DNA of 64,000 bases from Escherichia coli. GTDB taxonomy: Bacteria; Pseudomonadota; Gammaproteobacteria; Enterobacterales; Enterobacteriaceae. Each line of letters starts with the position of its first letter. Positions within the stretch are counted from its first letter, which is position 1. A program made the position numbers and the translations under genes. The DNA is taken from assembly GCF_044647545.1 (NCBI RefSeq), contig NZ_CP172818.1, one strand, 5' to 3'. The notes beneath the pieces were generated by a model. It was not told the DNA's origin. It did no database searches and saw only the letters and a list, made by a program, of their open reading frames with translations. Shown here piece by piece: positions 8,016 through 31,381 of this stretch.

Positions 8016-8732
8016 ATGAGACTCGAGTTTTCAATTTATCGCTATAACCCGGATGTTGATGATGCTCCGCGTATGCAGGATTACACCCTGGAAGCGGAAG
8101 AAGGTCGCGACATGATGCTGCTGGATGCGCTTATCCAGCTGAAAGAGAAAGATCCCAGCCTGTCGTTCCGTCGCTCCTGCCGTGAAGGTGTGTGCGGTTC
8201 CGACGGTCTGAACATGAACGGTAAGAATGGTCTGGCCTGTATTACCCCGATTTCGGCACTCAACCAGCCGGGCAAGAAGATTGTGATTCGCCCGCTGCCA
8301 GGTTTACCGGTGATCCGCGATTTGGTGGTAGACATGGGACAATTCTATGCGCAATATGAGAAAATTAAGCCTTACCTGTTGAATAATGGACAAAATCCGC
8401 CAGCTCGCGAGCATTTACAGATGCCAGAGCAGCGCGAAAAACTCGACGGGTTGTATGAATGTATTCTCTGCGCATGTTGTTCAACCTCTTGTCCGTCTTT
8501 CTGGTGGAATCCCGATAAGTTTATCGGCCCGGCAGGCTTGTTAGCGGCATATCGTTTCCTGATCGATAGCCGTGATACCGAGACTGACAGCCGCCTCGAC
8601 GGTTTGAGCGATGCATTCAGTGTATTCCGCTGTCACAGCATCATGAACTGCGTCAGTGTATGTCCGAAGGGGCTGAACCCGACGCGCGCCATCGGCCATA
8701 TCAAGTCGATGTTGTTGCAACGTAATGCGTAA
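8016..8732 (+). CDS. sdhB: Succinate dehydrogenase iron-sulfur subunit
   Basis: ORF track; 238 aa; Cys clusters CxxxxCxxC and CxxCxxCxxxCP. Confidence 0.96.
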   Translation: MRLEFSIYRYNPDVDDAPRMQDYTLEAEEGRDMMLLDALIQLKEKDPSLSFRRSCREGVCGSDGLNMNGKNGLACITPISALNQPGKKIVIRPLPGLPVIRDLVVDMGQFYAQYEKIKPYLLNNGQNPPAREHLQMPEQREKLDGLYECILCACCSTSCPSFWWNPDKFIGPAGLLAAYRFLIDSRDTETDSRLDGLSDAFSVFRCHSIMNCVSVCPKGLNPTRAIGHIKSMLLQRNA

Positions 8733-8912
8733 TTAATGTCGGGAATTCAGGAAATCTTTAAAAACTGCCCCTGACACTAAGACAGTTTTTAAAGGTTCCT
8801 TCGCGAGCCACTACGTAGACAAGAGCTCGCAAGTGAACCCCGGCACGCACATCACTGTGCGTGGTAGTATCCACGGCGAAGTAAGCATAAAAAAGATGCT
8901 TAAGGGATCACG

Positions 8913-11714
8913 ATGCAGAACAGCGCTTTGAAAGCCTGGTTGGACTCTTCTTACCTCTCTGGCGCAAACCAGAGCTGGATAGAACAGCTCTATGAAGACT
9001 TCTTAACCGATCCTGACTCGGTTGACGCTAACTGGCGTTCGACGTTCCAGCAGTTACCTGGTACGGGAGTCAAACCGGATCAATTCCACTCTCAAACGCG
9101 TGAATATTTCCGCCGCCTGGCGAAAGACGCTTCACGTTACTCTTCAACGATCTCCGACCCTGACACCAATGTGAAGCAGGTTAAAGTCCTGCAGCTCATT
9201 AACGCATACCGCTTCCGTGGTCACCAGCATGCGAATCTCGATCCGCTGGGACTGTGGCAGCAAGATAAAGTGGCCGATCTGGATCCGTCTTTCCACGATC
9301 TGACCGAAGCAGACTTCCAGGAGACCTTCAACGTCGGTTCATTTGCCAGCGGCAAAGAAACCATGAAACTCGGCGAGCTGCTGGAAGCCCTCAAGCAAAC
9401 CTACTGCGGCCCGATTGGTGCCGAGTATATGCACATCACCAGCACCGAAGAAAAACGCTGGATCCAACAGCGTATCGAGTCTGGTCGCGCGACTTTCAAT
9501 AGCGAAGAGAAAAAACGCTTCTTAAGCGAACTGACCGCCGCTGAAGGCCTTGAACGTTACCTCGGCGCAAAATTCCCTGGCGCAAAACGCTTCTCGCTGG
9601 AAGGCGGTGACGCGTTAATCCCGATGCTTAAAGAGATGATCCGCCACGCTGGCAACAGCGGCACCCGCGAAGTGGTTCTCGGGATGGCGCACCGTGGTCG
9701 TCTGAACGTGCTGGTGAACGTGCTGGGTAAAAAACCGCAAGACTTGTTCGACGAGTTTGCCGGTAAACATAAAGAACACCTCGGCACGGGCGACGTGAAA
9801 TACCACATGGGCTTCTCGTCTGACTTCCAGACCGATGGCGGCCTGGTGCACCTGGCGCTGGCGTTTAACCCGTCTCACCTTGAGATTGTCAGCCCGGTAG
9901 TTATCGGTTCTGTTCGTGCCCGTCTGGACAGACTCGATGAGCCGAGCAGCAACAAAGTGCTGCCAATCACCATCCACGGTGACGCCGCAGTGACCGGGCA
10001 GGGCGTGGTTCAGGAAACCCTGAACATGTCGAAAGCGCGTGGTTATGAAGTTGGCGGTACGGTACGTATCGTTATCAACAACCAGGTTGGCTTCACCACC
10101 TCTAACCCGCTGGATGCCCGTTCGACGCCGTACTGTACTGATATCGGTAAGATGGTTCAGGCACCGATTTTCCACGTTAATGCGGATGATCCGGAAGCCG
10201 TTGCCTTTGTTACCCGTCTGGCGCTCGATTTCCGTAACACCTTTAAACGTGATGTCTTCATCGACCTGGTATGCTACCGCCGTCACGGCCACAACGAAGC
10301 CGACGAGCCGAGCGCAACCCAGCCGCTGATGTATCAGAAAATCAAAAAACATCCGACGCCGCGCAAAATCTACGCTGACAAGCTGGAGCAGGAAAAAGTC
10401 GCGACGCTGGAAGATGCCACCGAGATGGTTAACCTGTACCGCGATGCGCTGGATGCTGGCGATTGCGTGGTAGCAGAGTGGCGTCCGATGAACATGCACT
10501 CCTTCACCTGGTCGCCGTACCTCAACCACGAATGGGACGAAGAGTACCCGAACAAAGTTGAGATGAAGCGCCTGCAGGAGTTGGCTAAACGCATCAGTAC
10601 GGTGCCGGAAGCCATTGAAATGCAGTCTCGCGTTGCCAAGATTTATGGCGACCGTCAGGCGATGGCAGCCGGTGAAAAACTGTTCGACTGGGGCGGCGCG
10701 GAAAACCTCGCTTACGCCACGCTGGTTGACGAAGGCATTCCGGTTCGCCTGTCGGGTGAAGACTCCGGTCGCGGTACCTTCTTCCACCGCCACGCGGTGA
10801 TCCACAACCAGTCTAACGGTTCAACTTACACGCCGCTGCAACATATCCATAACGGTCAGGGCGCGTTCCGTGTCTGGGATTCCGTACTGTCAGAAGAAGC
10901 CGTGCTGGCGTTTGAATACGGTTATGCCACCGCAGAACCGCGCACACTGACTATCTGGGAAGCACAGTTCGGTGACTTTGCCAACGGTGCTCAGGTGGTT
11001 ATCGACCAGTTCATCTCTTCTGGCGAGCAGAAATGGGGCCGGATGTGTGGCCTGGTGATGTTGTTGCCGCACGGTTACGAAGGGCAGGGGCCGGAGCACT
11101 CCTCCGCGCGTCTGGAACGTTATCTGCAACTTTGCGCTGAGCAAAACATGCAGGTGTGCGTACCGTCTACCCCGGCACAGGTTTACCACATGCTGCGTCG
11201 TCAGGCGCTGCGCGGGATGCGTCGTCCGCTGGTCGTGATGTCGCCGAAATCCCTGCTGCGTCATCCGCTGGCGGTTTCCAGCCTCGAAGAACTGGCGAAC
11301 GGCACCTTCCTGCCAGCCATCGGTGAAATCGACGAGCTTGATCCGAAGGGCGTGAAGCGCGTAGTGATGTGTTCTGGTAAGGTTTATTACGACCTGCTGG
11401 AACAACGTCGTAAGAACAATCAACACGATGTCGCCATTGTGCGTATCGAGCAACTCTACCCGTTCCCGCATAAAGCGATGCAGGAAGTGTTGCAGCAGTT
11501 TGCTCACGTCAAGGATTTTGTCTGGTGCCAGGAAGAGCCGCTCAATCAGGGCGCATGGTACTGCAGCCAGCATCATTTCCGTGAAGTGATTCCGTTTGGG
11601 GCTTCTCTGCGTTATGCAGGCCGCCCGGCCTCCGCCTCTCCGGCGGTAGGGTATATGTCCGTTCACCAGAAACAGCAACAAGATCTGGTTAATGACGCGC
11701 TGAACGTCGAATAA
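8913..11714 (+). CDS. sucA: 2-oxoglutarate dehydrogenase E1 component
   Basis: ORF track; 933 aa; recognised SucA sequence. Confidence 0.96.
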
Positions 11715-17999: not shown

Positions 18000-20633
18000 A
18001 TGAAAGCAGTATCTCGCGTTCACATCACCCCGCATATGCACTGGGATCGAGAGTGGTATTTCACCACCGAAGAGTCACGTATTCTGCTGGTCAATAATAT
18101 GGAAGAGATCCTGTGCCGACTGGAACAGGACAACGAATACAAATATTACGTACTCGACGGGCAAACGGCGATCCTCGAAGATTATTTCGCGGTGAAACCG
18201 GAAAACAAAGACCGTGTGAAGAAACAGGTAGAAGCCGGCAAGTTGATTATCGGCCCCTGGTATACCCAGACCGATACCACGATTGTTTCTGCGGAATCCA
18301 TCGTCCGTAATCTGATGTACGGAATGCGTGACTGCCTCGCGTTTGGCGAGCCGATGAAAATAGGTTATTTACCAGATTCCTTTGGCATGTCCGGGCAACT
18401 GCCGCATATCTACAATGGATTTGGCATTACCCGCACCATGTTCTGGCGCGGATGTTCGGAGCGCCACGGTACTGATAAAACCGAGTTTTTGTGGCAAAGC
18501 AGTGACGGTAGCGAAGTGACGGCGCAGGTGCTGCCGCTGGGCTACGCCATCGGTAAGTACTTACCTGCCGACGAAAACGGATTACGTAAACGCCTCGACA
18601 GTTATTTTGACGTGCTGGAAAAAGCGTCTGTAACCAAAGAGATTTTGCTGCCGAATGGGCATGACCAGATGCCATTGCAGCAAAATATCTTCGAAGTGAT
18701 GGATAAGCTACGTGAGATCTACCCTCAACGTAAGTTTGTGATGAGCCGCTTTGAAGAGGTATTTGAGAAGATCGAAGCGCAGCGAGATAATCTGGCAACC
18801 CTGAAAGGGGAATTTATTGATGGCAAATATATGCGCGTGCATCGCACCATCGGTTCTACGCGTATGGATATCAAAATTGCCCACGCGCGTATTGAAAATA
18901 AGATTGTTAATCTGCTGGAACCGCTGGCAACACTGGCCTGGACGTTGGGTTTTGAATACCACCACGGCTTGCTGGAGAAAATGTGGAAAGAGATCTTAAA
19001 AAATCATGCCCACGACAGTATCGGCTGCTGCTGTAGTGACAAAGTTCATCGCGAAATCGTCGCCCGCTTCGAACTGGCTGAAGACATGGCGGATAATCTG
19101 ATTCGTTTCTACATGCGCAAAATTGCCGACAACATGCCGCAGAGCGACGCCGACAAACTCGTCCTGTTTAACCTGATGCCCTGGCCGCGTGAAGAAGTTA
19201 TCAACACCACTGTGCGGCTGCGCGCCAGCCAGTTTAATTTGCGGGACGATCGCGGTCAGCCTGTACCGTATTTTATTCGCCATGCCCGTGAGATCGATCC
19301 AGGCCTAATCGATCGGCAAATAGTTCATTACGGTAATTACGATCCCTTTATGGAGTTTGATATACAGATCAACCAGATTGTCCCTTCTATGGGCTATCGC
19401 ACGCTTTATATCGAAGCGAATCAGCCTGGCAACGTAATTGCGGCAAAAAGTGACGCTGAAGGGATACTGGAAAATGCTTTCTGGCAAATTGCGCTCAATG
19501 AGGATGGTTCTCTGCAACTGGTAGATAAAGACAGCGGTGTGCGCTATGACCGGGTATTGCAAATTGAAGAAAGCTCTGATGATGGTGATGAATATGACTA
19601 TTCACCCGCAAAAGAAGAGTGGGTAATTACCGCAGCGAACGCGAAACCGCAATGCGATATTATTCATGAAGCCTGGCAGAGCAGGGCTGTTATCCGCTAT
19701 GACATGGCAGTGCCGCTCAATTTGTCAGAACGCAGCGCCCGGCAATCCACTGGCAGAGTAGGGGTGGTGTTGGTTGTCACTCTTAGTCATAACAGCAGGC
19801 GTATTGATGTGGATATCAATCTTGATAACCAGGCTGACGATCATCGCCTTCGTGTCCTGGTCCCTACACCTTTTAACACCGACAGTGTTCTGGCAGATAC
19901 GCAGTTTGGTTCGCTAACGCGCCCCGTGAACGACAGTGCAATGAACAACTGGCAGCAAGAAGGCTGGAAAGAAGCGCCGGTTCCGGTATGGAATATGCTC
20001 AACTATGTTGCCTTACAGGAAGGGCGTAACGGCATGGCTGTCTTTAGCGAAGGGTTACGTGAATTTGAAGTCATCGGTGAAGAGAAGAAAACCTTTGCCA
20101 TTACGTTGCTGCGTGGCGTGGGCTTACTGGGCAAAGAAGATCTGCTTTTAAGGCCTGGGCGGCCTTCGGGAATTAAAATGCCAGTCCCGGACTCACAACT
20201 ACGTGGTCTGCTTTCTTGTCGCCTAAGTTTATTGAGTTATACCGGTACGCCAACCGCCGCTGGTGTAGCTCAGCAGGCGCGAGCATGGCTGACTCCAGTA
20301 CAGTGTTACAACAAAATCCCATGGGATGTGATGAAGCTCAACAAAGCCGGATTCAACGTGCCGGAAAGTTATAGTTTGTTGAAAATGCCCCCAGTGGGAT
20401 GCCTGATAAGCGCACTTAAGAAAGCTGAAGACCGACAAGAAGTGATTTTACGGCTGTTTAATCCGGCTGAATCAGCAACCTGTGATGCGACTGTTGCTTT
20501 CAGTCGCGAGGTGATTTCTTGCTCAGAAACGATGATGGATGAACACATTACCACCGAGGAAAATCAAGGTTCAAATCTATCGGGGCCTTTTTTACCCGGC
20601 CAGTCACGGACGTTCAGTTACCGGCTTGCCTGA
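18000..20633 (+). CDS. mngB: Mannosylglycerate hydrolase (GH38 alpha-mannosidase)
   Basis: ORF track; 877 aa; downstream of mngA. Confidence 0.92.
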
Positions 20634-20689
20634 ATAGCAATCAAACCGAAGCCACATATGCGCGGCCAGATTGTTGACAAAGGGCGCTT

Positions 20690-20800
20690 TGTTCATGCCG
20701 GATACGGCATGAACGCTTTATTCGGTCTACAAAAGCAGGCAAATTCAATATATTGCAGAGATGATGTAGACACTGGCAAGCGTAGCGCATCAGGTAATTT
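20690..20800. repeat. Degenerate REP-like palindromic units downstream of mngB
   Basis: GCCGGATACGGCATGAACGCTTTATTCGGTCTAC and AAGCGTAGCGCATCAGG resemble REP consensus with several mismatches. Confidence 0.4.
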
Positions 20801-20885
20801 TGCGTTTATCTTCACTCTCAAGCCACGTATATGTGGCTTTATTTTTAACAAAATAATAACCCTGGGTGAGTTAATTATAATATAA

Positions 20886-21479
20886 TTATAAGTTAACTAA
20901 ATGTTAATATTGGCGGGGTGGATTTATGCCTTTATTAGTAATCCTGAAACTCTGCGTCGTATTAGCCAGTGACCAAAAAAAGAATTAAGGTCAACCGTGC
21001 TGTTTTTGCTTCGTCTCTTTTTATCTTTAATTGCCAACCGAAACTAATTTCAGCCTTATAACTCACACATTTTAAACATAAATGTCACTAAAGTTACCTT
21101 ATTGAAACATAATTAACATATTTGGTTGGTTTTGATATAAATCAATTTTTAATTCTTGAAAAAAATCTGCAAAACACGATAAATTGTCGTAGATCAAATT
21201 GGTGAGATCGTGACAATTTCGCTATAAATTGATCACTGTCGAAAAATGCAAATTTGCTCAATAAAAACCTGTTTATTGTAAGGATTTTGCGGCGTAATAT
21301 AATTACGGGATCAATTTGGTTTATTCATTAACATATTTGTAACTTTTTTATCATTGTCTTTTCCTCTTTTGATGAAATGGCAACGATAGAGGCGAGCAAA
21401 TAATTTTGTATTGGGGCATGCGTGTGACCCTTTCTAACGGGGTTCACTCTCGGAGTCTTCATGCGATGAGCAAGGAGTC
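20886..21479 (+). promoter_or_regulatory. cydAB multi-promoter control region (AT-rich, FNR/ArcA-regulated)
   Basis: About 600 bp AT-rich non-coding DNA upstream of cydA; contains the FNR-consensus sites listed separately. Confidence 0.6.
21132..21145. promoter_or_regulatory. FNR box (perfect TTGAT-N4-ATCAA) upstream of cydA
   Basis: TTGATATAAATCAA read directly; a second near-consensus TTGTCGTAGATCAA at about 21184-21197. Confidence 0.6.
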
Positions 21480-21482
21480 ATG

Positions 21483-23051
21483 ATGTTAGATATAGTCGAA
21501 CTGTCGCGCTTACAGTTTGCCTTGACCGCGATGTACCACTTCCTTTTTGTGCCACTGACGCTCGGTATGGCGTTCCTGCTGGCCATTATGGAAACGGTCT
21601 ACGTCCTTTCCGGCAAACAGATTTATAAAGATATGACCAAGTTCTGGGGCAAGTTGTTTGGTATCAACTTCGCTCTGGGTGTGGCTACCGGTCTGACCAT
21701 GGAGTTCCAGTTCGGGACTAACTGGTCTTACTATTCCCACTATGTAGGGGATATCTTCGGTGCGCCGCTGGCAATCGAAGGTCTAATGGCCTTCTTCCTC
21801 GAATCCACCTTTGTAGGTCTGTTCTTCTTCGGTTGGGATCGTCTGGGTAAAGTTCAGCATATGTGTGTCACCTGGCTGGTGGCGCTCGGTTCAAACCTGT
21901 CCGCACTGTGGATTCTGGTTGCGAACGGCTGGATGCAAAACCCAATCGCGTCCGATTTCAACTTTGAAACTATGCGTATGGAGATGGTGAGCTTCTCCGA
22001 GCTGGTGCTTAACCCGGTTGCTCAGGTGAAATTCGTTCACACTGTAGCGTCTGGTTATGTGACTGGCGCGATGTTCATCCTCGGTATCAGCGCATGGTAT
22101 ATGCTGAAAGGTCGTGACTTCGCCTTCGCTAAACGCTCCTTTGCTATCGCTGCCAGCTTCGGTATGGCTGCCGTTCTGTCTGTTATTGTTCTGGGTGATG
22201 AATCTGGTTACGAAATGGGCGACGTGCAGAAAACCAAACTGGCTGCTATTGAAGCCGAGTGGGAAACGCAACCTGCGCCTGCTGCCTTTACTCTGTTCGG
22301 CATTCCTGATCAGGAAGAGGAGACGAACAAATTTGCGATCCAGATCCCTTACGCGCTGGGCATCATTGCAACGCGTTCCGTGGATACTCCAGTTATCGGC
22401 CTGAAAGAACTGATGGTGCAGCATGAAGAACGCATTCGTAACGGGATGAAGGCGTACTCTCTGCTCGAGCAACTGCGTTCTGGTTCTACCGACCAGGCGG
22501 TTCGTGACCAGTTCAATAGCATGAAGAAAGACCTCGGTTACGGTCTGCTGCTGAAACGCTATACGCCAAACGTGGCTGATGCGACTGAAGCGCAGATTCA
22601 ACAGGCAACCAAAGACTCCATTCCGCGTGTAGCGCCGCTGTACTTCGCGTTCCGTATTATGGTGGCGTGTGGCTTCCTGCTGCTGGCAATCATCGCGCTC
22701 TCTTTCTGGAGTGTCATCCGCAACCGCATTGGCGAGAAAAAATGGCTGCTGCGCGCCGCGCTGTACGGTATTCCGCTGCCGTGGATTGCTGTAGAAGCGG
22801 GCTGGTTTGTGGCTGAATATGGCCGCCAACCGTGGGCTATCGGTGAAGTGCTGCCGACAGCTGTGGCGAACTCGTCACTGACCGCAGGCGATCTCATCTT
22901 CTCAATGGTGCTGATTTGCGGCCTGTATACCCTGTTCCTGGTGGCAGAATTGTTCTTAATGTTCAAGTTTGCACGCCTCGGCCCAAGCAGCCTGAAAACC
23001 GGTCGCTATCACTTTGAGCAGTCTTCCACGACTACTCAGCCGGCACGCTAA
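21483..23051 (+). CDS. cydA: Cytochrome bd-I ubiquinol oxidase subunit I
   Basis: ORF track 21480..23051; canonical start [12 protein letters not shown]; 522 aa. Confidence 0.96.
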
Positions 23052-29067: not shown

Positions 29068-29613
<546 letters not shown>

Positions 29614-29622
29614 GAGAATTGC

Positions 29623-30414
29623 ATGAGCAGTAACTTCAGACATCAACTATTGAGTCTGTCGTTACTGGTTGGTATAGCGGCCCCCTGGGCCGCTTTTGCT
29701 CAGGCACCAATCAGTAGTGTCGGCTCAGGCTCGGTCGAAGACCGCGTCACTCAACTTGAGCGTATTTCTAATGCTCACAGCCAGCTTTTAACCCAACTCC
29801 AGCAACAACTCTCTGATAATCAATCCGATATTGATTCCCTGCGTGGTCAGATTCAGGAAAATCAGTATCAACTGAATCAGGTCGTGGAGCGGCAAAAGCA
29901 GATCCTGTTGCAGATCGACAGCCTCAGCAGCGGTGGTGCAGCGGCGCAATCAACCAGCGGTGATCAAAGCGGTGCGGCGGCATCAACGACGCCGACAGCT
30001 GATGCTGGTACTGCGAATGCTGGCGCGCCGGTGAAAAGCGGTGATGCAAACACGGATTACAATGCAGCTATTGCGCTGGTGCAGGATAAATCCCGCCAGG
30101 ATGACGCAATGGTGGCATTTCAGAATTTCATCAAAAATTACCCTGATTCAACTTACCTGCCAAACGCCAATTATTGGCTGGGTCAGTTAAACTACAACAA
30201 GGGTAAAAAAGATGATGCGGCGTATTATTTTGCTTCGGTAGTGAAAAACTATCCGAAGTCACCGAAGGCTGCAGATGCGATGTTTAAAGTCGGCGTCATC
30301 ATGCAGGACAAAGGTGACACCGCAAAAGCGAAAGCCGTATACCAGCAGGTTATCAGTAAATACCCTGGTACTGATGGCGCTAAACAGGCGCAAAAACGTC
30401 TGAACGCGATGTAA
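29623..30414 (+). CDS. cpoB: Cell division coordinator CpoB (YbgF), TPR protein
   Basis: ORF track; 263 aa; signal peptide, coiled coil, TPR-like C-terminus. Confidence 0.93.
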   Translation: MSSNFRHQLLSLSLLVGIAAPWAAFAQAPISSVGSGSVEDRVTQLERISNAHSQLLTQLQQQLSDNQSDIDSLRGQIQENQYQLNQVVERQKQILLQIDSLSSGGAAAQSTSGDQSGAAASTTPTADAGTANAGAPVKSGDANTDYNAAIALVQDKSRQDDAMVAFQNFIKNYPDSTYLPNANYWLGQLNYNKGKKDDAAYYFASVVKNYPKSPKAADAMFKVGVIMQDKGDTAKAKAVYQQVISKYPGTDGAKQAQKRLNAM

Positions 30415-30578: not shown

Positions 30579-30654
30579 GGGTCGTTAGCTCAGTTGGTAG
30601 AGCAGTTGACTTTTAATCAATTGGTCGCAGGTTCGAATCCTGCACGACCCACCA
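30579..30654 (+). tRNA. lysT: tRNA-Lys (UUU)
   Basis: 76-nt GGGTCGTTAGCTCAGTTGGTAGAGCAGTTGACTTTTAATCAATTGGTCGCAGGTTCGAATCCTGCACGACCCACCA; anticodon loop CTTTTAA. Confidence 0.97.
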
Positions 30655-30730
30655 ATCGCTAAGGTGGAAGCGGTAGTAAAACGTGAAGGATAACGTTGCG
30701 TCAGCAACGGCCCGAAGGGCGAGACGAAGT

Positions 30731-30754
30731 CGAGTCATCCTGCACGACCCACCA
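30731..30754 (+). other. 3' fragment of tRNA-Lys (acceptor/T-arm remnant) in the lysT-valT spacer
   Basis: ATCCTGCACGACCCACCA is identical to the last 18 nt of the tRNA-Lys genes, with no 5' half. Confidence 0.6.
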
Positions 30755-30789
30755 CTAACATAGTTAGTTGTAGTATCCAGCGTAGTATC

Positions 30790-30865
30790 GGGTGATTAGC
30801 TCAGCTGGGAGAGCACCTCCCTTACAAGGAGGGGGTCGGCGGTTCGATCCCGTCATCACCCACCA
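30790..30865 (+). tRNA. valT: tRNA-Val (UAC)
   Basis: 76-nt GGGTGATTAGCTCAGCTGGGAGAGCACCTCCCTTACAAGGAGGGGGTCGGCGGTTCGATCCCGTCATCACCCACCA. Confidence 0.97.
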
Positions 30866-30867
30866 CC

Positions 30868-30943
30868 GGGTCGTTAGCTCAGTTGGTAGAGCAGTTGACT
30901 TTTAATCAATTGGTCGCAGGTTCGAATCCTGCACGACCCACCA
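30868..30943 (+). tRNA. lysW: tRNA-Lys (UUU)
   Basis: Identical to lysT, 76 nt. Confidence 0.97.
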
Positions 30944-30994
30944 CTAATTACGGTGGGTTCGGTGGAAGTAGTTTGTAGTATCCAGCGCAGTATC

Positions 30995-31070
30995 GGGTGA
31001 TTAGCTCAGCTGGGAGAGCACCTCCCTTACAAGGAGGGGGTCGGCGGTTCGATCCCGTCATCACCCACCA
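30995..31070 (+). tRNA. valZ: tRNA-Val (UAC)
   Basis: Identical to valT, 76 nt. Confidence 0.97.
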
Positions 31071-31073
31071 CTC

Positions 31074-31148
31074 GGGTCGTTAGCTCAGTTGGTAGAGCAG
31101 TTGACTTTTAATCAATTGGTCGCAGGTTCGAACCTGCACGACCCACCA
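31074..31148 (+). tRNA. lysY: tRNA-Lys (UUU) variant copy, 75 nt, with a 1-nt shorter T-loop
   Basis: Same as lysT except T-arm reads GGTTCGAACCTGC instead of GGTTCGAATCCTGC. Confidence 0.85.
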
Positions 31149-31196
31149 ATTTTAAAGATTGGTTCCGAGTAGAAATCTTTCAGGTAACACCCGTAT

Positions 31197-31272
31197 GGGT
31201 CGTTAGCTCAGTTGGTAGAGCAGTTGACTTTTAATCAATTGGTCGCAGGTTCGAATCCTGCACGACCCACCA
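31197..31272 (+). tRNA. lysZ: tRNA-Lys (UUU)
   Basis: Identical to lysT, 76 nt. Confidence 0.97.
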
Positions 31273-31305
31273 TCCTGAATGATTAAAGCAGCATAATCCC
31301 GCAAG

Positions 31306-31381
31306 GGGTCGTTAGCTCAGTTGGTAGAGCAGTTGACTTTTAATCAATTGGTCGCAGGTTCGAATCCTGCACGACCCACCA
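31306..31381 (+). tRNA. lysQ: tRNA-Lys (UUU)
   Basis: Identical to lysT, 76 nt. Confidence 0.97.

Follow-up and report, generated by a model that had tools for sequence, protein, structure and literature searches.

Conserved hairpins in the sdhB-sucA spacer of Escherichia coli: a structured intercistronic RNA with a probable relation to mRNA processing

The spacer between sdhB and sucA of Escherichia coli encodes four hairpins (HP1 to HP4, Table 1) that are real and evolutionarily conserved elements of a structured plus-strand RNA under purifying selection. Together they probably form one conserved structured intercistronic RNA of about 165 nt on the read-through mRNA, whose role is related to processing and not to termination. 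The window, i.e. the whole stretch of 64,000 nucleotides that was analysed, contains a spacer of 180 nt, and of the 5,426 complete E. coli genomes, 5,425 have a near-identical locus with the same annotation of sdhB and sucA. The feature as such is already known, because RNase III processing, an internal promoter and GlnZ pairing in this spacer have been published. New in this analysis are the family-wide covariation, the lack of an Rfam family for the structured core, the insertion hot spot in the HP1 loop, the location of HP1 to HP3 upstream of the internal transcription start site (TSS), and a testable switch model.

Table 1. Features of the sdhB-sucA region (positions of the window)
Feature	Position	Strand	Description	Basis
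sdhB	8016-8732	+	gene	ORF listing and RefSeq annotation of near-identical E. coli loci
Variable sdhB-proximal spacer	8733-8749	+	17-nt remnant TTAATGTCGGGAATTCA	alignment with three E. coli variants and orthologs
HP1, full	8750-8799	+	A/U-rich helix of about 17-19 bp, GGAA-A-UCUUUAAAAACUG / CAGUUUUUAAAGGUUCC, 15-nt loop	
HP1, core	8756-8767/8783-8794	+	perfect 12 bp, CTTTAAAAACTG/CAGTTTTTAAAG	
GGUUCCUU	8794-8801	+	invariant base of the HP1 3' arm plus two nt; can pair with AAG-U-GAACC at 8831-8839	
HP2	8803-8808/8825-8830	+	6-bp GC-rich hairpin GCGAGC/GCUCGC (DNA GCGAGC/GCTCGC), variable 16-nt loop	
GUGAACCC, candidate anti-Shine-Dalgarno	8833-8840	+	complementary to GGGAUCAC at 8904-8911	
HP3	8844-8851/8856-8863	+	8-bp hairpin CACGCACA/TGTGCGTG (RNA 3' arm UGUGCGUG), loop UCAC (DNA TCAC)	
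Extended -10-like element TGGTAGTAT	8862-8870	+	overlaps the 3' end of HP3	read from the sequence
GlnZ seed complement UCCACGGC	8870-8877	+	single-stranded between HP3 and HP4, just 5' of the internal TSS	
Primary TSS of the internal suc promoter	8878	+	G	Cappable-seq 757894(+) of U00096.2 (PMC4782308 supplement)
HP4	8882-8888/8896-8902	+	7-bp hairpin UAAGCAU/AUGCUUA (DNA TAAGCAT/ATGCTTA), directly 5' of the sucA Shine-Dalgarno	
sucA Shine-Dalgarno AGGGA, spacer and ATG	8903-8907 (AGGGA), 8913-8915 (ATG)	+	ribosome-binding site and start codon	ORF and annotation
sucA	8913-11714	+	gene	ORF listing and RefSeq annotation of near-identical E. coli loci

The three palindromes that a sequence-only reading had placed between sdhB and sucA are all present. 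Its first one, AAAACTG...CAGTTTT, is contained in the longer HP1 helix (17-19 bp with one bulge), the coordinates given for GCGAGC/GCTCGC of HP2 are exact, and the third palindrome exists as HP3 with its true start one base to the left of the proposed one. HP4, the internal promoter with its TSS at 8878, the GlnZ target between HP3 and HP4 and the prior description of the region were absent from that reading. RNA folding, which it had proposed as a check, bears the structures out. The minimum free energy (MFE) of the whole spacer is -55.5 kcal/mol compared with -39.9 +/- 4.1 kcal/mol in 200 dinucleotide shuffles (z -3.81), none of which was as good. Each hairpin likewise folds better than shuffles (z -2.3 to -5.2), as shown for HP1 alone (-17.4 kcal/mol, z -5.2), the extended form of HP2 (-17.5 kcal/mol, z -3.75), HP3 alone (-12.9 kcal/mol, z -2.3; 6 of 200 shuffles as good) and HP4 alone (-5.7 kcal/mol, z -4.1).

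Our comparative analysis is based on the 80 Enterobacterales sdhB-sucA loci among the matches listed, a set without representatives of E. coli and S. enterica subsp. enterica. The spacer length of these listed loci ranges from 198 to 660 nt, and positions 8748-8924 of the window align at 73-93% identity throughout the Enterobacteriaceae among them. The identity of the core amounts to 81.6% over 46 Enterobacteriaceae orthologs versus 57.3% at four-fold sites in the first 300 sucA codons, and the sucA Shine-Dalgarno (SD) region AAGGGATCA is invariant in all loci aligned. Covariation was tested in a 47-sequence Enterobacteriaceae alignment with trimmed long HP1 loops, where 94.4% of the cells are paired under the four-hairpin model versus 23-48% with partners slid by 1-3 columns, and 12 pairs show double-sided changes. 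Five measures of the whole structure were compared with 500 shuffles; on four of them no shuffle came up to the alignment, and on the fifth, which counts further pair types, 30 of 500 did.

HP2, with 97.9% of its cells paired in the 47 sequences, shows GC/GU/AU covariation at two pairs, at which 11 and 9 sequences have changed both sides; its variants are GCGAGC/GCUCGC, GCGGGC/GCUCGC and GCGGAC/GUCCGC, the last one being found e.g. in E. albertii, Salmonella and Citrobacter. Double-sided changes occur across genera at all five inner pairs of HP3 (95.7% of cells paired), and HP4 (99.1%) exhibits the compensatory forms AAGCCU/AGGCUU in Mangrovibacter and AAGCUU/AAGCUU in Yersinia and Serratia. 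The HP1 helix is found in 79 of the 80 listed loci including Pantoea, Yersinia, Serratia and Rahnella, one locus with a misidentified 5' arm having been dropped from the count. It has 91.4% of its cells paired versus at most 61% in slid controls, a percentage that is somewhat inflated because the 5' arms of distant genera were located via complementarity to the 3' arm, and nine of its 18 pairs show double-sided changes. G-U pairs are frequent, with 17 GU at one pair of HP2, 14-19 at pairs of HP3 and 22 UG in HP1. As such pairs work only on the plus strand, selection acts on the pairing of the plus-strand RNA.

The HP1 loop carries insertions of 43-165 nt in 36 of 58 loci, and both arms are kept. 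The Klebsiella, Raoultella, Lelliottia and Kosakonia groups have ERIC-like inserts, whereas those of Enterobacter, Pseudocitrobacter and Leclercia are a palindromic, GC-rich repeat that resembles boxC; relatives of each insert are present elsewhere in the same spacer. The distance between the HP1 arms ranges from 5 to 165 nt, which rules out a DNA operator of fixed spacing and fits a helix with an unconstrained apical part. HP1 tolerates large mobile-repeat insertions, and so does the stretch from the GlnZ site to HP4. Many genera have such elements in this spacer, which is a hot spot for them, and K-12 harbors three REPs immediately upstream of the hairpins, so one could regard HP1 to HP4 as decayed mobile repeats, i.e. 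REP, ERIC or boxC relics without a function of their own. This origin is nevertheless scarcely credible, since the hairpins are single-copy, orthologous and syntenic across the family, covarying, and conserved far above the level of synonymous sites. The ERIC-like and boxC-like copies are insertions in other genera; mobile elements have entered the hairpin scaffold and did not give rise to it. The HP1 arm is unique in the window, and the sequence occurs at a median of one place per genome in 5,425 E. coli genomes, unlike the many dispersed copies with a shared consensus that characterize REP/BIME, ERIC or boxC. The single-copy state shows that HP1 to HP4 are not a repeat family. A small ORF was considered as well, because an ATG stands in frame with CAG GAA ATC TTT AAA AAC TGC CCC TGA in the window and in K-12. 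It was rejected as a conserved peptide, because the triplet before CAG is AAG, TAG, TGG, ACG or CGG in other genera.

The distal 165 nt of the spacer, from position 8748 to the sucA ATG and including HP1 to HP4, are 100% identical to those of K-12 MG1655, and published K-12 data for the four hairpins therefore apply directly to the window (window position + 749,793 = NC_000913.3). The spacer itself comprises 300 nt in K-12 versus 180 nt here, because the window lacks the three REP elements of K-12, a cluster of about 130 nt directly past the sdhB stop codon in which REP1 and REP2 can form a duplex of about 30 bp according to folding. Other strains and genera exhibit a GC-rich hairpin GCCGGGGAA..TTCCCCGGC at the sdhB-proximal position, or remnants in the case of E. 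coli strains. None of the complete E. coli genomes, 5,426 in number, has the exact sdhB-proximal junction of the window (best match 90.9%). A 3-kb stretch elsewhere in the window likewise reaches at most 97.2% identity to any of these genomes, and the DNA probably stems from a divergent lineage of Escherichia. The REP-less spacer provides a natural test case for separating the effects of REPs from those of the conserved hairpins.

The only 3' ends that Term-seq located in the K-12 spacer are 758531 and 758707 (PMC7815308 supplement). The former lies 4-5 nt past the third REP, which is absent in the window, and the latter corresponds to position 8914, the T of the sucA ATG; these K-12 data contain no 3' ends at HP1, HP2 or HP3, whose sequence is identical. 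This observation bears on the proposal that the hairpins are partial transcription attenuators, which would stop a fraction of the RNA polymerases and thereby set the sdh:suc ratio. An 'internal terminator' with partial read-through has indeed been reported for the operon (PMC4161252; PMC6393394), and HP1 has the A-tract, stem and U-tract layout of bidirectional terminators. Its central stem is weak in G+C, however, and the sole U5 run (8786-8790) is located within this stem, paired with an A5 run. The tails after HP1, HP2 and HP3 are GGUUCCUU, AAGUGAAC and GUAGUAUC instead of U-runs, and a consensus scan of 8400-9300 detected no terminator-like site. The earlier statements that there is no clear U-run and that the hairpins are not full terminators thus hold. 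The partial attenuator that had accompanied them is not supported for HP1 to HP3, because no Term-seq 3' ends follow them, and we consider this role very unlikely.

The TSS of the internal suc promoter was placed under the assumption of an offset of 777 nt between U00096.2 and U00096.3, which puts the Cappable-seq signal at 758,671 and hence at window position 8878; the U00096.3 coordinates were checked against the annotation and the Term-seq positions. It is located 35 nt 5' of the sucA ATG, 15 nt past HP3 and 7 nt downstream of the extended -10-like element, in agreement with a TGnTAnnnT motif that precedes a mapped primary 5' end by 5-9 nt. In the ortholog alignment, its TAGT(A/T)T core is conserved. 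A strict consensus promoter scan of 8400-9300 returned nothing in the spacer, missing TGGTAGTAT, and gave no -35 match; the promoter was recognised by eye and then confirmed with the Cappable-seq data. Its position downstream of HP1 to HP3 and of the GlnZ site has the consequence that all of these occur only on the read-through sdh-suc mRNA. RNA from the internal promoter holds only HP4 and the ribosome-binding site.

The vicinity of this promoter allows for a different reading of the palindromes at the DNA level, namely as protein-binding sites or as architecture of the internal suc promoter, with IHF as one example. HP3 reaches with its 3' arm into the TG of the extended -10-like element, the TSS is 15 nt past the hairpin, and the near-invariant GGTTCCTT and GTGAACCCCGG exceed what pairing alone demands. 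Cunningham and Guest are said to have described the suc promoter in 1998 as IHF-repressed and partly sigma-38 dependent. We nonetheless regard a DNA element as unlikely, since the G-U pairs through which the compensatory changes pass would correspond to A-C mismatches in DNA cruciforms or on the opposite strand, the HP1 arms are 5-165 nt apart, and the TSS lies 80-130 nt downstream of HP1 and HP2. Inspection by eye showed no WATCAANNNNTTR IHF consensus in HP1 to HP3, and a candidate IHF site in HP1 was rejected for lack of such a match.

The segment UCCACGGC between HP3 and HP4 complements GCCGUGGA of the GlnZ seed (5'-UUGCCGUGGAAA-3'), which identifies a neighbouring segment, and not the hairpins, as sRNA target. 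GlnZ represses sucA by pairing in the leader, and the seed and its experimental validation have been reported for K-12 (PMC9731577; Walling et al. preprint 10.1101/2022.04.01.486790). This repression of SucA requires RNase III and is lost in an rnc mutant (Walling et al. preprint 10.1101/2022.04.01.486790).

Processing of the 10-kb sdhCDAB-sucABCD mRNA in the spacer by RNase III as well as RNase E goes back to Cunningham & Guest 1998, as relayed by later papers (PMC9731577, PMC5371410, PMC6393394). The same work, to the extent that it is cited there, described the internal suc promoter, a 10-kb read-through transcript that could be seen in mutants of rnc and rne only, and, via PMC9731577, three RNase III sites that precede the GlnZ site in the spacer. 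Internal termination, an extra promoter and RNase III/E processing of the operon are also described in PMC6393394 and PMC4161252, and nothing on the sdhB-sucA spacer was found in PMC10197701, PMC2759082 and PMC8708148. In K-12 an RNase III-dependent coverage hole is located at 758515 (Gordon et al., PMC5371410), a position in the loop of the third REP and 28 nt upstream of HP1. The interpretation of the hairpins as RNA processing or stability structures, which the sequence-only reading had favored, is accordingly backed by the published RNase III/E processing in the spacer and by the strand-specific G-U covariation, and it is essentially the published view.

An RNase III processing site is expected to have a stem of some two helical turns (about 20-22 bp), and the minimum duplex is often quoted as about 22 bp (PMC5371410). 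HP1 with its 17-19 bp falls slightly below this value and is the only duplex in the window near the length of an RNase III substrate; HP2 (6 bp, or 14 bp in its extended form), HP3 (8 bp) and HP4 (7 bp) are too short. HP1 is probably the RNase III entry site, and it fits such a target because it combines a conserved helix of about 18 bp and an unconstrained loop with palindromic insertions that lengthen the stem. The published RNase III sites could also be situated in REP DNA that is absent here, given that 758515 lies in the third REP and that the REP1:REP2 duplex is at least as good a substrate. The most probable scenario is that the structured RNA (8750-8912) would be carried only by the sdhCDAB-sucABCD mRNA from the sdh promoter, with RNase III entering at the HP1 helix of about 18 bp. 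After processing, HP2 and HP3 would be located near the new 5' end of the suc mRNA and may protect it, a protective or insulating role being conceivable for HP4 as well; HP2 and HP3 would also keep the GlnZ/Hfq target at 8870-8877 single-stranded between HP3 and HP4. Cleavage would control the translation of sucA, and it has been reported that SucA is lower and SucB unaffected in an rnc14 strain (PMC9731577).

The way in which cleavage might act on translation is suggested by two alternative helices. The segment GGUUCCUU is invariant in 47 of 47 Enterobacteriaceae and retained in Yersinia, Serratia and Pantoea, and the extended HP2 that it can form represents the MFE structure of the isolated segment 8794-8839. 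The second one is a long-range helix between GUGAACCC and GGGAUCAC, which is part of both the RNAalifold consensus and the K-12 MFE structure and covers the SD together with its spacer. It is 99.1% paired in the 47 sequences, with no compensatory change. Since the columns are invariant, there is no covariation for or against either alternative helix. Pair probabilities (P) for serial 5' truncations of the window distinguish three predicted states (Table 2).

Table 2. Predicted pairing in RNAs of the window with successively truncated 5' ends
RNA 5' end	State of HP1	P of anti-SD helix (C8839-G8905)	P of extended HP2 (G8795-C8838)
<=8748	intact	about 0.87	0.01-0.03
8757-8793	5' arm gone, GGUUCC kept	<=0.07	0.91-0.99
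8796-8832	3' arm gone too	0.61-0.91	0

The same behavior is predicted for many orthologs: of 49 RNAs, 38 have the anti-SD helix at P above 0.5 when intact, and 33 have the extended HP2 above this value once the 5' arm is removed. Simulated cleavage of HP1 clearly raises the accessibility of the SD in the window, Citrobacter and Salmonella arizonae. The gain is small in many other genera (mean unpaired probability 0.12), where folding predicts different pairing partners for the SD once the switch has occurred, and a switch is therefore not robustly supported family-wide.

On the basis of these modelled structures, it is conceivable, though we propose it only tentatively, that the spacer functions as an RNase III-gated translational switch of three mutually exclusive helices. 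In the intact read-through mRNA, HP1 would sequester GGUUCCUU (8794-8801), leaving GUGAACCC free to pair with the SD region of sucA (8904-8911) and to silence this gene. A cut of RNase III in HP1 would remove the 5' arm, whereupon the freed GGUUCCUU could pair with AAG-U-GAACC, extend HP2 and release the SD. The polycistronic RNA would thus be translated into SucA only after processing, whereas the RNA that starts at 8878 would always be open and lacks the GlnZ site. Such a switch, if true, would explain the lower SucA and the normal SucB of the rnc mutant as well as the invariance of GGUUCCUU, GUGAACCC and AAGGGAUCAC across Enterobacteriaceae. It would also account for the loss of the GlnZ effect in rnc, because only the RNA from the internal promoter without a GlnZ site would then be translated. 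A direct anti-SD function of GGUUCCUU (8 bp with AAGGGAUC) is possible on paper and perfect in Pantoea (UCCCUU:AAGGGA); it was rejected because the partition function prefers GUGAACCC as the partner of the SD.

The combination of four hairpins, several invariant segments that are single-stranded or alternatively paired, and a predicted anti-SD helix would also fit a riboswitch-like sucA leader that senses a ligand or protein, with the conserved unpaired segments as binding pocket. Rfam describes structured motifs that are conserved ahead of sucA in Burkholderiales and Pseudomonadales, which would be analogous orphan motifs of other proteobacteria. A cmscan search of 8400-9300 against Rfam revealed no sucA-family match even at E<=10, and the whole window is free of matches to these families at the gathering threshold. 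The matches at E<=10 (E 2.7-6.2), two miRNA over HP1 and one Mycobacterium sRNA inside sucA, were dismissed as chance. A sensing leader is quite unlikely, because the invariant segments are already accounted for by the mutually exclusive helices, the promoter and the GlnZ site, the element lacks a conserved multi-helix junction, and insertions of large mobile repeats are tolerated both within HP1 and in the stretch from the GlnZ site to HP4.

The preferred reading, a processing-related RNA on the read-through mRNA, concerns a spacer that sets the output of 2-oxoglutarate dehydrogenase versus succinate dehydrogenase from one operon of the TCA cycle and represents the entry point of nitrogen status, via the sRNA GlnZ, into carbon flux. 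The hairpins themselves add little to this picture, as processing in the spacer has been known since 1998. What is useful is the structured core with Enterobacterales-wide covariation and no Rfam family, and the location of HP1 to HP3 and the GlnZ site upstream of the internal TSS, due to which they act on the read-through mRNA only. A concrete switch model could moreover reconcile two puzzling published rnc phenotypes.

The closest known system is the published processing region of the E. coli sdhCDAB-sucABCD operon itself, which corresponds to the window in locus, gene pair, internal promoter and GlnZ target, but differs in K-12 by the three REP elements that are missing here. REP/BIME elements at operon-internal 3' ends are likewise stable extragenic palindromes of the same spacer, and a K-12 Term-seq 3' end is situated 4-5 nt beyond the third REP. 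The spacer of the window contains no REP, and HP1 to HP3 differ from these elements in being single-copy, devoid of the REP consensus and conserved by orthology. The target of GlnZ, an sRNA from the glnA 3'UTR, is present as UCCACGGC and has the same surroundings in the window and in K-12; it adjoins the hairpins HP1 to HP3 but is identical with none of them, and lies upstream of the internal TSS. The motifs sucA (RF01070) and sucA-II (RF01758) are conserved multi-hairpin RNAs that directly precede sucA and include the ribosome-binding site in their pairing. The enterobacterial element resembles them in its multi-hairpin structure directly upstream of sucA and in the predicted pairing of the ribosome-binding site. 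It differs in lacking any match in sequence or structure, in the lineages concerned and in its intercistronic position downstream of sdhB. In the adhE leader, cleavage by RNase III is needed to unmask an occluded ribosome-binding site (PMC5371410 introduction). In parallel to adhE, folding predicts that a complementary segment farther upstream sequesters the SD of sucA, and RNase III raises the amount of protein, as SucA is lower in rnc14 (PMC9731577). Unlike in adhE, the predicted release would be indirect, with GGUUCCUU capturing the anti-SD segment after the cut in HP1, and the site is located between two cistrons instead of in a 5' leader.

The loop of HP1, one of the conserved RNA hairpins of the sdhB-sucA spacer, is a recurrent insertion site of mobile palindromic repeats. 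Inserts of 43-165 nt, with both hairpin arms left intact, are present in 36 of the 58 loci. Their kinds are ERIC-like copies of ~130-140 nt, a truncated form of ~70 nt, and GC-rich repeats of ~55 nt resembling boxC.

Coordinates of spacer variants and further features (L numbers, sdhB-sucA loci fetched from other genomes; L004, K-12)
Feature	Sequence	Position or loci
HP1 empty site	window	8768-8782
HP1-loop insertions	loci	L008, L010-L014, L016, L018, L020-L033, L039-L044, L048, L051, L053, L069, L073
ERIC copies, GlnZ target-HP4 interval	Citrobacter	L015 166-293; L017 ~205-332
ERIC within HP3-equivalent hairpin	Serratia, two species	L075, L082
sdhB-proximal spacer end	window	8733-8749
Counterpart of this end	K-12	NC_000913.3 758406-758540 = L004 307-441
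GUCGGG:CCCGGC pairing	window	8738-8743:8839-8844
Small ORF	window	8736-8774
Tandem BIME units	E. albertii	L005 951-1320
Tandem REP-bearing units	Superficieibacter electus	L027 841-1290
HP1 3' arm ending in GGUUCCCUU	Erwiniaceae	L050, L056-L067, L070-L072, L077
Rfam gathering-threshold matches: CpoB/ybgF intercistronic RNA thermometer (142 bits); seven-gene tRNA cluster; RtT RNA	window	29514-29652 and 30579-31378

Next to sdhB, the spacer differs greatly across Escherichia. This part carries three REP elements in K-12, the GC hairpin GCCGGGGAAATCCCCCGGC in strain 503025 and a remnant left by deletion in strain BS-01; the remnant of the window, GTCGGGAATTC, is even shorter than the latter and was not found in any of the 5,426 E. 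coli genomes available as complete assemblies. Part of this remnant forms the GUCGGG:CCCGGC helix in the predicted minimum free energy fold of the window, where it competes with the predicted anti-SD helix. The same end opens a small ORF of 12 codons (ATG TCG GGA ATT CAG GAA ATC TTT AAA AAC TGC CCC TGA) with an in-frame counterpart of nine codons in K-12, and both extend into the 5' arm of HP1. This ORF is probably fortuitous, because its start codon is not conserved among other genera. Units containing REP elements are amplified in tandem after sdhB in two other species, with four BIME units of ~97 nt in E. albertii (spacer 550 nt) and about five REP-bearing units of ~89 nt in Superficieibacter electus (spacer 660 nt).

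For the mngB-cydA region (20000-23000), the best match among the 5,426 genomes is only 97.2% identical, although the spacer core is the same in the window and K-12 and residues 1-300 of SucA match those of E. albertii exactly. The window may stem from a divergent or cryptic Escherichia lineage. No Rfam family reached the gathering threshold over any part of the sdh-suc operon, and the matches in the window lie outside it.

In Erwiniaceae (Pantoea, Mixta and relatives) the element that terminates the HP1 3' arm, GGUUCCCUU, is a perfect complement of the Shine-Dalgarno sequence AAGGGA, and the GUGAACCC element is absent from these loci; the regulatory logic may be different or even inverted there.

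At the distal end of the spacer, the Term-seq data for K-12 (PMC7815308) include an RNA 3' end at 758707 that is reproducible and insensitive to bicyclomycin. It corresponds to window position 8914, the middle nucleotide of the sucA ATG, 12 nt past HP4. An exonuclease halted by HP4 could produce this end, as could cleavage tied to translation or sRNA control.

Insertions are not confined to HP1: two Serratia species harbor an ERIC within the HP3-equivalent hairpin, and a second spacer insertion site lies between the GlnZ target and HP4, occupied in two Citrobacter species by an ERIC copy that shares 80% identity with the one in locus L012. This insertion places the GlnZ site ~130 nt farther from the start codon, in agreement with the published layout of Salmonella Typhimurium, whose GlnZ target is located at -166.
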